IMG/VR virus record: IMGVR_UViG_2718218128_000005
Source of the DNA: a virus
Taxonomy: Duplodnaviria; Heunggongvirae; Uroviricota; Caudoviricetes
Direction: 5' to 3' (one strand)
Length of the DNA stretch: 12,971 nucleotides
Positions 208 to 6,219 of the stretch are shown here, piece after piece. The position numbers and the translations under genes were made by a program. Under the pieces are notes generated by a model. It saw nothing but the letters and a program-made list of their open reading frames with translations. It did not search any database and was not told where the DNA came from. Position 1 is the stretch's first letter. Each line of letters opens with the position of its first letter.

Positions 208-792
208 TTACTCCCTGACAGGGTTCGTAGGCCACTCAATATCAGGTGCAGTTGATGTATCAACACGGTTCAGCAACACCCGATACTTTTTCCAGGCTTC
301 CAGCAATGAGGTTTCTTCCTCCGTTGCGATTTCCAGATCTACAGCATCCTGAAGTGGCGCAATATGCTCACTGGCTACCTGCATCAGGCTGTTTTTTATT
401 TCTTCCGCCTCTCGGATCCGGAACAGTTTTTCTGCTTCTGCATCTTTCACCCAGGCTGTGCCGTTCCACTTCTGAAACTCCCCTTCCGGCGATAACCAGG
501 TAACATTTTCCGGTAACGGACCGAGTTCAGAAATAAATAACTCGTCCCCTGACGCTACGTCATAAACCGTTTTACCCCGATGGTCTTCAACGAGATGCCA
601 CGATGCCTCATCACTGTTGAAAACAGCCACAAAGCCAGCAGGAATATCTGGTGGTGCAATATCGGTACTGTTTGCTGGCAGACCTGTATGAGGCGGAATA
701 TATGCATCACCTTCACCAATAAATTCATTAGTTCCGGCCAGCAGATTATAAATTTTTATGGTCCGTGCTTGTTCACTCATTCTGAATGCCAT
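208..792 (-). CDS. tfa: Tail fibre assembly protein (lambda Tfa family), apparently intact, 194 aa
   Basis: The translation looks like lambda/lambdoid Tfa proteins from memory. ATG at 792-790; its start overlaps the stop of the upstream tail-fibre frame (TAATG). Confidence 0.88.
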
Positions 793-1270: not shown

Positions 1271-1555
1271 TTTGTCGCTCCATGCGCTTGCTCTTCATCT
1301 AGCGGTTAAAATATTACTTCAAATCTTTCTGTATGAAGATTTGAGCACGTTGGCCTTACATACATCTGTCGGTTGTATTTCCCTCCAGAATGCCAGCAGG
1401 ACCGCACTTTGTTACGCAACCAATACTATTAAGTGAAAACATTCCTAATATTTGACATAAATCATCAACAAAACACAAAGAGGTCAGACCAGATTGAAAC
1501 GATAAAAACGATAATGCAAACTACGCGCCCTCGTATCACATGGAAGGTTTTACCA

Positions 1556-1966
1556 ATGGCTCAGGTTGCCATTTTTAAAGAAATATTCGATCAAGTGCGA
1601 AAAGATTTAAACTGTGAATTGTTTTATTCTGAACTAAAACGTCACAACGTCTCACATTATATTTACTATCTAGCCACAGATAATATTCACATCGTGTTAG
1701 AAAACGATAACACTGTGTTAATAAAAGGACTTAAAAAGGTTGTAAATGTTAAATTCTCAAGAAACACGCATCTTATAGAAACGTCCTATGATAGGTTGAA
1801 ATCAAGAGAAATCACATTTCAGCAATACAGGGAAAATCTTGCTAAAGCAGGAGTTTTCCGATGGGTTACAAATATCCATGAACATAAAAGATATTACTAT
1901 ACCTTTGATAATTCATTACTATTTACTGAGAGCATTCAGAACACTACACAAATCTTTCCACGCTAA
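1556..1966 (+). CDS. ybcV: DUF1398-family prophage protein, 136 aa (YbcV/YdfO-like)
   Basis: The track ORF 1433..1966 contains an internal ATG at 1556 preceded by GGAAGG, which gives 136 aa ([13 protein letters not shown]...). Size and position match YbcV. The upstream ATG at 1526 and the track start at 1433 lack a Shine-Dalgarno sequence. Confidence 0.75.
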
Positions 1967-2556: not shown

Positions 2557-2582
2557 GAGTTGCCCATCGATATGGGCAACTC
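2557..2582. terminator. Palindromic hairpin between convergent bor and Rz
   Basis: GAGTTGCCCAT-CGAT-ATGGGCAACTC: 11-bp perfect stem with a 4-nt loop, overlapping the Rz stop codon. There is no strong U-tract on either strand, so terminator function is uncertain. Confidence 0.3.
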
Positions 2583-3043
2583 TATCTGCACTGCTCATTA
2601 ATATACTTCTGGGTTCCTTCCAGTTGTTTTTGCATAGTGATCAGCCTCTCTCTGAGGGTGAAATAATCCCGTTCAGCGGTGTCTGCCAGTCGGGGGGAGG
2701 CTGCATTATCCACGCCGGAGGCGGTGGTGGCTTCACGCACTGACTGACAGACTGCTTTGATGTGCAACCGACGACGACCAGCGGCAACATCATCACGCAG
2801 AGCATCATTTTCAGCTTTCGCATCAGCTAACTCCTTCGTGTATTTTGCATCGAGCGCAGCAACATCACGCTGACGCATCTGCATGTCAGTAATTGCCGCG
2901 TTCGCCAGCTTCAGTTCTCTGGCATTTTTGTCGCGCTGGGCTTTGTAGGTAATGGCGTTATCACGGTAATGATTAACAGCCCATGACAGGCCGACGATGA
3001 TGCAGATAACCAGAGCGGAGATAATCGCGGTTACTCTGTTCAT
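2582..3043 (-). CDS. rzpD: Rz i-spanin (inner-membrane spanin subunit), 153 aa
   Basis: The translation matches lambda Rz as I remember it. The true ATG is at 3043-3041, overlapping the R stop (ATGA); the track ORF begins 4 codons earlier at a GTG. Confidence 0.93.
2641..2823 (-). CDS. rzoD: Rz1 o-spanin lipoprotein, 60 aa, embedded in the +1 frame of Rz
   Basis: [24 protein letters not shown]... has lipobox VVGC and a proline-rich segment; it matches lambda Rz1 as I remember it. It lies entirely inside Rz. Confidence 0.9.
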
Positions 3044-3537
3044 TGCTGACCCCACAAACAGATTTCACGCTCAATCTCACGACGAGTCATGAGACCTTTC
3101 CATTGCTTACCGCCAGCATATGTCCAGCGACGTAGCTGATCACATGCGCCTTTGATATCGCCCTGGTTTATTTTGCGAAGAAGCGTCGATGTTCTGAAAT
3201 TGCCAGCACCCACGTTGTAAACGAATGAGTAAAGAGCGCCGCGCGTTGTTTCCGGTATATCGACTTTGATGTACGGGTTAATTTGTCTGGCGACAGTGGC
3301 AAGGTCTTTATTCAAGAGTGCTTTGCATTCTGCTTTGGTATACGTTTTACCGAGCATGATGTCTTTTCCTGTATGCCCGTGACATACAGTCCATACACCA
3401 ACAATATCTTTATATGGTATGTAGCTGACACCTTCCAGACCATCGTCACCACTCGGACCAGTGATGAGCACAGACGCTATGGCAACAGCCCCACCACCAA
3501 TAGCAGCTGCTACAGCCTTGCGTAATGATGGCGACAT
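3040..3537 (-). CDS. rrrD: Phage-21-type endolysin with N-terminal SAR domain (T4-lysozyme-like, GH24), 165 aa
   Basis: Gly/Ala-rich weakly hydrophobic N-terminus ([20 protein letters not shown]) followed by an E...D...T catalytic arrangement ([18 protein letters not shown]). Its ATG overlaps the S stop (TAATG). Confidence 0.93.
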
Positions 3538-3752
3538 TATTCACCTCTCGCAGCCTTACGCTTATCTTCTTTAATCTTGAAATAAAGGTTTGTCAGGTAC
3601 GTCAGCAGGCCAAATACCAGGCTACCCAGCACTCCAATTGCCGCCCACTGTGAGGGCGTGACTTTATCTAGCAGCTGTAAAAACCAGTACCCGGCACTAC
3701 CTGCTGAGGTGCCATAGGCGACACCCGTTGTTAACTTATCCATGGATTTCAT
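3537..3752 (-). CDS. essD: Pinholin S21-type holin with dual-start motif (MKSM), 71 aa
   Basis: 71 aa with two predicted transmembrane segments and Met1-Lys2-Ser3-Met4, the classic antiholin/holin dual start of phage 21 S. GAGGTGG Shine-Dalgarno sequence upstream. Confidence 0.93.
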
Positions 3753-3861
3753 AACCCCACCTCGCAGACAAAGCGGGTGTAAATTGAGGGAATACTACGA
3801 AACGTAACAGACTCGGAGTCAGTGAATAACTCAGGTATTGGGTTATCAGCTAATATCGAGA

Positions 3862-3897
3862 CTCAAAAAATGGAAAAACCCGCTCGACGGCGGGTTT
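3862..3897 (-). terminator. Intrinsic terminator on the minus strand about 110 nt upstream of S; candidate late-operon tR'-like terminator
   Basis: Stem AAACCCGC(3876-3883)/GCGGGTTT(3890-3897) with a 6-nt loop. On the minus strand it is followed directly by TTTTTCCATTTTTTG. Confidence 0.5.
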
Positions 3898-4325
3898 AAG
3901 CTGTGTGACGAAGTAACCACTCTTAACAGCATAACCAATTTTTTACGTACGTAAACCACTAAATGATATTTGCGAGAATGCTACCGAGTATTGAAAACAC
4001 CACTACAAATACATAAGCAAATCTCAACAAATAACCAACAAATAATTTCCAGTGTTATTTTTAGCCGATTTAAATTGAACCTTCAAATTATAGAGCACTT
4101 ATAAATAACAGCCGTTAATATAAATTGGCTAATAGATTTATTTTTATTCAGCCAAGAGCTATAAATAGGATTCGATAGAAAAAAGTTCAGATAAAAATAG
4201 AGATCTACTTCACAAATCAAACGAGAAACCAAAACTTACATCTTGAAATAATCACATTGATTAGATGAATATTTATCGCGCAGTGACATCATTTTTTAAT
4301 AATAGTTCAAAAAAAAGGGCTCACG

Positions 4326-5423
4326 ATGAAAAAATTAACAGTGGCAATTTCTGCTGTAGCTGCATCAGTACTGATGGCGATGTCTGCTCAGGCAGCTGAA
4401 ATTTATAATAAAGACAGTAACAAGCTGGATCTGTACGGGAAAGTTAATGCCAAGCACTACTTCTCCTCTAATGATGCAGATGATGGTGATACTACTTATG
4501 CCCGTCTTGGCTTCAAAGGTGAAACCCAAATCAACGATCAACTGACTGGTTTCGGTCAGTGGGAATATGAATTCAAAGGCAACCGCGCTGAATCTCAAGG
4601 TTCCTCCAAAGACAAAACCCGTCTTGCATTTGCAGGCCTGAAATTCGGTGACTACGGCTCAATCGATTACGGCCGTAACTACGGTGTAGCATACGACATC
4701 GGTGCGTGGACTGACGTTCTGCCAGAATTCGGTGGCGATACCTGGACCCAAACAGATGTGTTCATGACTGGTCGCACCACTGGTGTTGCAACCTATCGTA
4801 ACAACGACTTCTTTGGTCTGGTTGATGGTCTGAACTTTGCTGCTCAGTACCAAGGCAAAAACGATCGTAGCGATTTCGATAACTACACTGAAGGTAACGG
4901 TGATGGCTTCGGTTTCTCTGCTACCTATGAATACGAAGGATTCGGTATCGGTGCAACTTATGCGAAATCTGATCGTACCGACACTCAAGTTAATGCAGGG
5001 AAAGTTCTTCCTGAAGTATTTGCTTCCGGTAAAAATGCAGAAGTTTGGGCCGCAGGTCTGAAATATGACGCTAACAACATTTACCTGGCCACTACCTATT
5101 CTGAAACCCAGAATATGACTGTATTTGCTGATCACTTCGTTGCTAATAAAGCCCAAAACTTCGAAGCTGTTGCACAATATCAGTTCGATTTCGGTCTGCG
5201 TCCGTCCGTTGCTTACCTGCAATCTAAAGGTAAAGATCTTGGAGTATGGGGCGATCAGGACTTAGTCAAATATGTTGATGTAGGTGCAACCTATTACTTC
5301 AACAAAAATATGTCTACTTTCGTTGATTACAAAATCAACCTGCTTGACAAAAATGACTTCACTAAAGCACTCGGTGTAAGCACTGATGACATCGTTGCTG
5401 TAGGTCTGGTTTACCAGTTCTAA
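4326..5423 (+). CDS. nmpC: Outer-membrane general porin, NmpC/Lc (OmpC/OmpF family), apparently intact, 365 aa
   Basis: Signal peptide ending [10 protein letters not shown], general-porin-like sequence and the terminal ...VGLVYQF. It lies between Q and the lysis genes on the opposite strand, as nmpC does in DLP12. Confidence 0.93.
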
Positions 5424-5596
5424 TCTGATTACGAAAAAGATATGTTGCGGGAGGCGTTGCCTCCCCAACATATAAGTGGCTCCCTCAAGCCACTTCCTTT
5501 AGAAGCACAACCTTGCTTCTAACTATATAAACCTTCTGTTATATATTACCCTTTATTTTTGGGGGCGTCTCAACGCCCCATTTTTAATAATTTTTA
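5424..5596 (+). ncRNA. ipeX: Candidate IpeX-like small RNA / structured 3' region downstream of the porin gene
   Basis: Three successive hairpins (5449-5465 GGGAGGC/GCCTCCC; about 5471-5492 AAGTGGCT/AGCCACTT; about 5500-5517 GAAGCA/TGCTTC) plus the terminator at 5562-5596. I recall a porin-inhibitory sRNA (IpeX) mapped just 3' of nmpC in DLP12; the boundaries here are guesses. Confidence 0.25.
5562..5596 (+). terminator. Intrinsic terminator on the plus strand (porin / 3' RNA terminator)
   Basis: Stem GGGGCGT(5562-5568)/ACGCCCC(5573-5579) with a 4-nt loop, followed by ATTTTTAATAATTTTT. It would also shield Q from antisense read-through. Confidence 0.5.
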
Positions 5597-5612
5597 GTAA
5601 ACAATTGGCATA

Positions 5613-5996
5613 TTAATTAGAGTTATTAACAACGATATCCATCTCTAACCGGATATCTAATGCCATTAACATCCCTTCAATTATGCCCTCAGCCTTCTGT
5701 AACCTTTTCCCGATATAACCATCAGAGCAGCAATGCTTACCTGCCAGTGACATGAATGTCATACCGACTACATAATAATCTACTAATAAATCGTGCAAAT
5801 CGCTGTTGTTCTTTTTCAGACGGGCCATGCACCCGCAAATAATCATCGCGTCATCGTCACAACATTGCGGGCGAGATTTTACTTTTGAAGTAATTAATCC
5901 CTTAAAACCGGCGGCAATGGACGACCAGGTCACATCTTCATGATTATTAGCCGCCCACGCTCCCCAACGCTCAAGAACCATCTGAATATCACGCAT
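5613..5996 (-). CDS. quuD: Late-gene antiterminator Q, 127 aa
   Basis: ATG at 5996-5994 with GGAG upstream gives 127 aa ([18 protein letters not shown]...), the size of DLP12 QuuD. The track ORF starts 5 codons earlier at TTG. Confidence 0.9.
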
Positions 5997-6081
5997 CAAC
6001 TTACTCCACAAAAATCAGACCAGAACGCCAATTACAAGCAAAAATCAACAAAACAGTATTAGTTGATTGTTATCTCTGACT

Positions 6082-6219
6082 TCATACTCCTGCTCCTGTC
6101 AGGGTTTTGGCGTAATTCTTCAGTATTCGGTAATCGGTCAAAACAGAACCGGGGAAACGATATAAGCGCAGATGCCCCCAGCGGTGGCGAAGAAGTTCTG
6201 CCATATAAAACTCAAACAT
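6082..6219 (-). CDS. ylcG: Small nin-region ORF, 45 aa (YlcG-like)
   Basis: My translation from ATG 6219-6217 to stop 6084-6082 is [45 protein letters not shown]. Its start overlaps the rusA stop (TGATG), and its position between rusA and Q matches ylcG. Confidence 0.45.
   Translation of the reverse strand: MFEFYMAELLRHRWGHLRLYRFPGSVLTDYRILKNYAKTLTGAGV

Follow-up and report, generated by a model that had tools for sequence, protein, structure and literature searches.

A 12,971-nt stretch of Caudoviricetes DNA (IMG/VR record IMGVR_UViG_2718218128_000005, hereafter the window) carries an lc/nmpC-type porin gene followed by a structured 3' region, and the question raised by this locus is what that 3' region encodes and how it could act on the porins of the host cell. 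Our results indicate that the region is very probably the intact Lc/NmpC porin cassette of a DLP12/PA-2-type lambdoid prophage, and that its 3' tail is the small RNA (sRNA) IpeX. The module of porin and IpeX has already been described, as has the function of IpeX (PMC12197685, PMC5069750, PMC8065619, PMC3333887), and it is present here in the PA-2-like intact state and not in the IS5-disrupted state of Escherichia coli K-12. What appears to be new is that a conserved stretch of IpeX is strongly complementary to the ribosome-binding site of ompC, contrary to what later papers have stated. The interest of the locus lies in this disagreement, and in the frequency and under-annotation of the element.

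The porin gene (Table 1) was compared with protein families, solved structures and the PA-2 and K-12 records. Its translation matched the entire Pfam Porin_1 model (PF00267; residues 29-365 against model positions 1-337 of 337, E=1e-156), and the top solved-structure matches were OmpC/OmpK36 chains (E about 1e-135 over residues 24-365). Identity to PA-2 Lc was 363 of 365 residues, the two differences from the 1986 PA-2 record being R99H and V154F. Lc of PA-2 and NmpC of DLP12 (GenBank J02580; Blasband et al. 1986) likewise have 365 residues, carry an identical signal peptide and have the lysis and Q genes seen here as neighbours. The gene thus combines a full-length Porin_1 domain, a signal peptide, a C-terminal Phe and near-identity to Lc at a position between the Q and lysis genes, as an Lc/NmpC porin does. 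Judged by its sequence, the product is a full-length OmpC-family porin, and a trimeric outer-membrane channel is predicted.

A preliminary description of the locus had read the open reading frame (ORF) as full length, with 365 residues and a C-terminal Phe, and had given the K-12 copy as disrupted by IS5; both statements held in the translation, the Porin_1 match and the K-12 record. The K-12 MG1655 record lists nmpC as a pseudogene whose two fragments flank IS5B, and the annotation of the phage 434 record reads 'IS5 insertion after codon 346'. The target site of IS5 in K-12 and phage 434B is uninterrupted in the window, and, IS5 apart, the window and K-12 are identical from 5362..5365 through 5640. 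An intact gene proved to be the rule rather than the exception, since 113 of the 118 copies with a readable ORF were intact (39 of 365 aa and 74 of 360 aa) and five were broken or truncated. The IpeX tail is common to these two porin alleles, one of 365 aa (Lc/NmpC type, with an identity to the window of 99.4% or more) and one of 360 aa (about 91% identical, labelled 'porin OmpC' in RefSeq).

The ipeX gene of MG1655 has been placed at 574365-574531 on the reverse strand, with a length of 167 nt (PMC8313858, supplementary table). Mapped through the alignment, these coordinates fall directly behind the porin gene of the window, the position in DLP12 at which the preliminary description had placed a porin-inhibitory IpeX RNA. 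Aligning the region to the published ipeX, a check proposed there, gave 167 identical positions of 167. The RNA begins at the T that opens the porin stop codon (5421..5423) and ends just beyond the T-run of the terminator. IpeX of the cryptic prophage DLP12 and of phage PA-2 (Castillo-Keller, Vuong and Misra 2006, J Bacteriol 188:576) occupies the same place, reaching from the nmpC/lc stop to a Rho-independent terminator and converging on quuD. In the PA-2 lc record (J02580.1), positions 2571-2791 match window 5405..5625 at 100% identity. The element therefore has the identity of ipeX, the location between an lc/nmpC stop codon and a Rho-independent terminator, and a counterpart downstream of lc in PA-2. 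In K-12, IS5 parts most of nmpC from ipeX, whereas here, as in PA-2, the porin upstream is intact; with the porin gene intact, IpeX should come from the porin promoter. Expression of ipeX in K-12 has been reported by transcriptome papers (PMC12266141; PMC8313858, supplement), and a 2025 paper includes ipeX in a table of E. coli sRNAs covering the EcoCyc-annotated set.

The upstream regulatory region of the porin closely resembles those of K-12 and PA-2 (Table 1), and a CRP site, taken from the annotation of PA-2, corresponds to about window 4197..4217. A few upstream bases differ from the PA-2 record. At window 4156..4169 (plus strand), the window has GAGCTATAAATAGG where K-12 and PA-2 have GAGCCATGAATAGG, which creates a TATAAA hexamer; this variant was found in only 4 of the 64 copies examined.

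The region 5421..5600 was predicted to fold with -63.5 kcal/mol, compared with -32.2 +/- 3.9 kcal/mol for 200 dinucleotide shuffles (z=-8.0), and none of the shuffles reached an energy as low. Downstream of the porin, three hairpins and a plus-strand terminator had been described; the terminator stood, and the number of local hairpins rose to four. The terminator has a stem of 7 pairs (5562..5579, 6 of them G-C), a T5 run (5581..5585) and a U-rich tract just upstream. The loop of the weak fourth hairpin, ACCUUCUG, corresponds to IpeX nt 111-118; this hairpin was unpaired in the RNAalifold consensus, and its opening energy was only 3.4 kcal/mol. Variation was assessed in 135 collected copies, which reduced to 37 distinct sequences. 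Among these 37 variants, 97% of the cells in the five helices were paired, and variable columns were less frequent in paired (17/92) than in unpaired positions (25/76; p=0.048). In hairpin 1, hairpin 3 and the terminator, the loops vary and the stems hold. A C->G change on the 3' arm of hairpin 1 (alignment A4, column 46), present in seven variants, shifts the bulge and leaves the helix unbroken. On the minus strand, window 5262..5471 holds a 69-aa ORF, 'ORF1' of the 1986 PA-2 record, which overlaps the 3' end of the porin gene and hairpin 1 of IpeX and is probably not a gene.

Complementarity of IpeX was calculated in silico against the start regions of K-12 ompC, ompF and ompA and against the porin's own (lc) start region. 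Energies were obtained from 22-nt windowed duplexes combined with opening energies derived from unpaired probabilities, and the change in free energy on cofolding (ddG) served as a second measure. Raw RNAduplex runs on whole sequences were dropped, as they gave meaningless full-length duplexes, and targets were inseparable from background when accessibility was left out. The best ompC site paired IpeX nt 110-124 (AACCUUCUGUUAUAU, window 5530..5544) with ompC -21..-7 (AUAUAACAGAGGGUU) in an unbroken run of 15 pairs, 14 of them Watson-Crick and one G.U, over the Shine-Dalgarno (SD) sequence GAGGG, with a hybridisation energy of -20.2 kcal/mol and a net energy of -13.0 kcal/mol. In the whole-molecule cofold, hairpin 4 opens and a second helix of 9 bp forms between IpeX nt 130-138 (CCUUUAUUU) and ompC -31..-23 (ddG -18.4). 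For ompF, IpeX nt 117-134 paired with -15..+3 through two helices, of 10 and 5 bp, separated by a 1x1 internal loop, with a net energy of -8.6 to -9.7. The accessibility-corrected energies of ompA (-3.6 kcal/mol) and lc (-2.8 kcal/mol) were at background level.

Two backgrounds, limited to 379 sequences in all, were used to judge these values. The accessibility-corrected energy averaged -2.95 (standard deviation 2.15, minimum -8.6) for 209 random 141-nt segments of unrelated DNA, and -3.4 (standard deviation 2.45, minimum -11.5) for 170 start regions that belonged to long ORFs and contained an SD motif; for the same 170 start regions, cofold ddG averaged -5.4 (standard deviation 3.0, minimum -14.4). 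None of the 379 background sequences scored as well as ompC, so the complementarity over the ompC SD exceeds chance, and complementary runs of at least 15 occurred in only 2 of 400 random 141-nt segments. The results for ompC and ompF are not independent, because the two genes have similar SD sequences. The predicted ranking, ompC above ompF above ompA and lc, is consistent with the target phenotype as reported. A 2006 study of IpeX reportedly found that OmpC and OmpF were inhibited and OmpA was not, and that the effect on ompC, not that on ompF, was independent of Hfq.

The pairing segment lies in the most conserved part of IpeX and involves the weakest of its hairpins. In 13 BLAST-derived copies, which were not selected by the seed, the longest invariant run of IpeX was found at alignment columns 131-157 (window 5529..5555), and the exact 22-mer 5530..5551 occurred in all 118 IMG/VR copies that had been anchored on hairpin 1. 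Copies fetched through this 22-mer are no evidence for the invariance of the seed, because they were found with it. On the target side, 5364 of 5426 genomes had an ompC leader with an identity of 99% or more.

According to the literature, the porin mRNA would carry IpeX at its 3' end, and IpeX, as the processed 167-nt RNA or within the full transcript, would lower the synthesis of OmpC and OmpF post-transcriptionally, with the consequence that the lysogen exchanges OmpC/OmpF for the phage porin. For the step in between, we tentatively favour IpeX as a conventional antisense regulator whose nt 110-138 (5530..5558), which comprise the loop and 3' arm of hairpin 4 and the tract behind it, may occlude the SD of ompC and, less perfectly, the start of ompF. 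Hairpin 4 and the single-stranded tract that follows it would pair directly with ompC -31..-7 and cover the SD; the SD and start codon of ompF would lie under a more interrupted duplex; and the porin's own translation start, which is not complementary, would escape. Because the predicted duplex is long and perfect with ompC but interrupted with ompF, this model would explain why the ompC effect is reportedly independent of Hfq and the ompF effect needs it. If this is true, the prophage carries a two-part porin-swap device, in which a replacement porin is encoded together with an mRNA tail that silences the resident porins.

Several observations weigh against this antisense model or against parts of the picture on which it builds. 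Two papers state that IpeX shows no base pairing with, or complementarity to, ompC and ompF (PMC3617542, PMC10690425), a review holds that its regulation does not act solely through complementarity (PMC12197685), and any deletion or mutation data in the 2006 study may exclude the pairing segment. A search for ipeX interaction data in published RIL-seq work found none. The ompF prediction is marginal: by energy it ranked in the top 1-2%, but by cofold no higher than the top 8%, where ompA did about as well, although away from the ompA ribosome-binding site. The invariance of the seed could have another cause, as the copies have diverged by only about 4%. The covariation test on the five helices of the 37 variants gave 0 compensatory pairs, with shuffles equal to the observed value; because the copies are about 96% identical, covariation is silent and neither backs nor counters the fold. 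One-sided transitions kept pairing only on the plus strand in 6 cases and only on the minus strand in 4, and thus favoured no strand. A consensus scan of the plus strand over 3700..5746, which misses weak promoters, found no consensus sigma-70 promoter-like site and hence none for the porin. Finally, multicopy suppression is how IpeX was discovered (PMC3617542), and its effect in single copy may be small.

The published denials of pairing and the weak ompF prediction would also fit an indirect action of IpeX, through titration of a protein such as Hfq, ProQ or an RNase, or through envelope-stress signalling, with the ompC complementarity being fortuitous. The RNA is highly structured, and its terminator with U-rich flanks is typical of Hfq binders. 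Statements on Hfq itself differ, as IpeX has been called Hfq-independent (PMC8313858) and has been said to need Hfq for at least some targets (PMC5069750). A fortuitous match, however, would have to account for a duplex of 15 + 9 bp that lies exactly over the SD of the best-documented target and exceeds all 379 background sequences, and for the location of the ompC-pairing segment in the most conserved block of IpeX. We regard indirect action as a real possibility, yet a somewhat doubtful one. It is unlikely that the 3' region is only a structured untranslated region (UTR) and terminator, which would stabilise the porin mRNA, insulate the convergent quuD and porin units and have no meaningful trans effect in single copy. 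The origin of IpeX as a multicopy suppressor speaks for such a role, as does the finding that ipeX levels did not track OmpC in 20 clinical isolates (PMC7177473). Seen from the minus strand, hairpin 1 precedes CUUUUUCG and could thus serve as an intrinsic terminator against read-through from quuD; the terminator scan missed this structure because its stem is bulged. In contrast, the lc transcript itself has been reported to lower OmpC in PA-2 lysogens (reviews including PMC12197685), and a role as terminator or stabiliser leaves unexplained why the 27-nt block 5529..5555 is invariant while the loops of hairpins 1 and 3 and of the terminator vary.

The hairpins could also belong to a minus-strand late leader, with the promoter PR', a qut site, a 6S-like RNA and the terminator tR', rather than to the porin transcript. 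In lambda and 933W, PR' immediately follows Q, and 5424..5612 lies directly downstream of quuD on its strand; the consensus scan, however, found no promoter-like site on the minus strand of 5424..5612. In Lambda_2E9 (LR595860.1, locus L017, 1802..2860), which has a quuD-like Q gene of 87.5% nucleotide identity, the homology ends at window 5637 and a different moron comes next, a convergent lipocalin (Blc) gene in place of the porin. This origin of the hairpins is highly improbable. The assignment of 5424..5612 as a PR'/qut/6S-like late leader was rejected, as a 933W-like pR'-qut-terminator stretch lies beyond the porin gene, at 3876..3955 (minus strand).

Antisense pairing by IpeX, if real, would resemble that of MicC and MicF, chromosomal sRNAs that act against the translation starts of ompC and ompF, which form imperfect duplexes of about 20-25 bp over a porin leader or SD and have a terminator with a U-tail. 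IpeX differs from them in that it has no sequence similarity to either, is phage-borne, lies in an mRNA 3' UTR and not in a free-standing gene, and acts on ompC in a reportedly Hfq-independent manner through a pairing that is predicted. Like the 3'-UTR-derived sRNAs MicL, CpxQ, DapZ and SroC, IpeX has its terminator in common with the parent mRNA. The consensus scan of 3700..5746, in which weak promoters escape, found no separate plus-strand promoter-like site upstream of IpeX, and a review describes IpeX as processed from a longer precursor (PMC12197685). IpeX differs from these four in that it is functionally coupled to the product of its parent gene: the RNA represses the resident porins, and the encoded porin replaces them. 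InvR of Salmonella SPI-1, which represses OmpD (PMC5069750), is likewise a horizontally acquired RNA directed against a major porin of the core genome; unlike IpeX, it has an unrelated sequence, its own promoter under HilD and a dependence on Hfq.

Through this module, the surface display of the lysogen is altered, and OmpC and OmpF are major antibiotic routes and receptors for many phages. PA-2 uses OmpC as its receptor, so that a lysogen with Lc in place of OmpC would exclude superinfection. Since 2006, IpeX has been reported to work without base pairing, and the complementarity found here makes the question open to a simple mutagenesis test.

The distribution of the element was assessed in complete genomes, phage records and IMG/VR contigs. 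Of 5426 complete E. coli genomes, 2509 carried the 189-bp intergenic region, with most copies at 90-100% identity; it also occurred in 36 phage records and more than 120 IMG/VR contigs. A 22-mer scan with one genome per species returned three contigs, all titled E. coli, and no more divergent homologues. RefSeq had no feature under the element in any full-length match among the matches listed in the complete-genome search, and the copy of NC_000913.3 used has no feature at 574340..574528 (window 5424..5612), although micF is annotated in that record. Rfam 15 contains no IpeX family, and the best weak match in 5350..5680 was to an unrelated family (E=1.1). As the element is common yet under-annotated and has no Rfam family, strain differences in porin profile and permeability may be missed.

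The window represents a DLP12-type lambdoid prophage of E. coli, in which the gene order (tail-fibre assembly, DUF1398/ybcV, bor, rzpD, rrrD, essD, porin, quuD, ylcG, rusA and onwards) is that of K-12 DLP12, inverted, according to a comparison of annotations with which Pfam agrees. Several complete E. coli chromosomes matched window 4000..6100 at 99.7% identity and bear the RefSeq labels porin, quuD and ylcG in it, and no complete genome covered the whole window at 99% identity or more. The quuD gene converges with the porin gene and forms the right-hand border of the cassette, position 5612, the end of the region in the preliminary description, being the last base before it. The left-hand border is the PR'/qut/tR' stretch between the porin start and essD (minus strand, GGTTTACGTACGTAAAAAATTGGTTATGCTGTTAAGAGTGGTTACTTCGTCACACAGCTTAAACCCGCCGTCGAGCGGGTTTTT), in which the terminator scan placed a minus-strand terminator at 3897..3876. 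Given this 933W-like PR' module, the porin cassette (about 3956..5612) lies between Q and PR' and not downstream of PR', and it is oriented against late transcription. Its position in this gap and its orientation would fit a moron expressed in the lysogen. The gap between Q and PR' seems to be a recurrent slot for reverse-oriented morons.

Table 1. Features of the porin cassette and its surroundings in the window
Feature	Position	Strand	Basis and remarks
lc/nmpC-type general porin gene	4326..5423	+	ORF with ATG start, 365 codons plus stop; ends in VYQF and stop, C-terminal Phe
Porin signal peptide, 23 residues	4326..4394	+	Annotation of the PA-2 record, 1492-1560; identical sequence; mature start AEIYNK
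Porin upstream regulatory region	3956..4325	+	97% identical to K-12 and PA-2 upstream regions
CTAA, IS5 target site in K-12 and phage 434B, uninterrupted here	5362..5365	+	K-12 alignment
IpeX, 167-nt 3'-UTR-derived small RNA of the porin transcript	5421..5587	+	K-12 coordinates mapped via alignment
Hairpin 1: 8+7 bp, bulged C, loop GUU	5440..5473	+	Fold; stem nearly invariant
Hairpin 2: 8 bp, 6-nt loop	5474..5495	+	Fold; two innermost pairs lost in CFT073-type variants
Hairpin 3: 9 bp, variable 6-nt loop	5499..5522	+	Fold; A->G opposite U (G.U) in 10/37 variants
Hairpin 4: weak, 7 A-U pairs, invariant 8-nt loop	5524..5545	+	Fold
Proposed seed, IpeX nt 109-138	5529..5558	+	Predicted pairing with ompC -21..-7 and -31..-23; nt 113-140 complementary to ompF around SD/AUG
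Intrinsic terminator of porin mRNA and IpeX	5562..5585	+	Scan; GGGGCGU-CUCA-ACGCCCC, then AUUUUU
quuD, Q-type late antiterminator gene	5613..6011	-	Pfam Phage_antitermQ, E=4e-53; RefSeq labels in near-identical genomes
Late promoter PR', qut-like site and first terminator tR'	3876..3955	-	Homologous by eye to annotated phage 933W pR', qut and terminator
essD, rrrD, rzpD, lysis-side neighbours of the porin	3752..2582	-	Annotation, Pfam

Two further observations concern the tail-side part of the window. The only Rfam match at gathering level in the window was IS009 (RF02111; 251..449, minus strand, 227.8 bits, full length), which lies inside the tail-fibre-assembly ORF (208..792, Caudo_TAP). The DUF1398 (ybcV-like) ORF at 1433..1966 (plus strand) reads 177 aa from a GTG start, and its actual start is probably internal, because K-12 ybcV (579184..579594) encodes about 136 aa.

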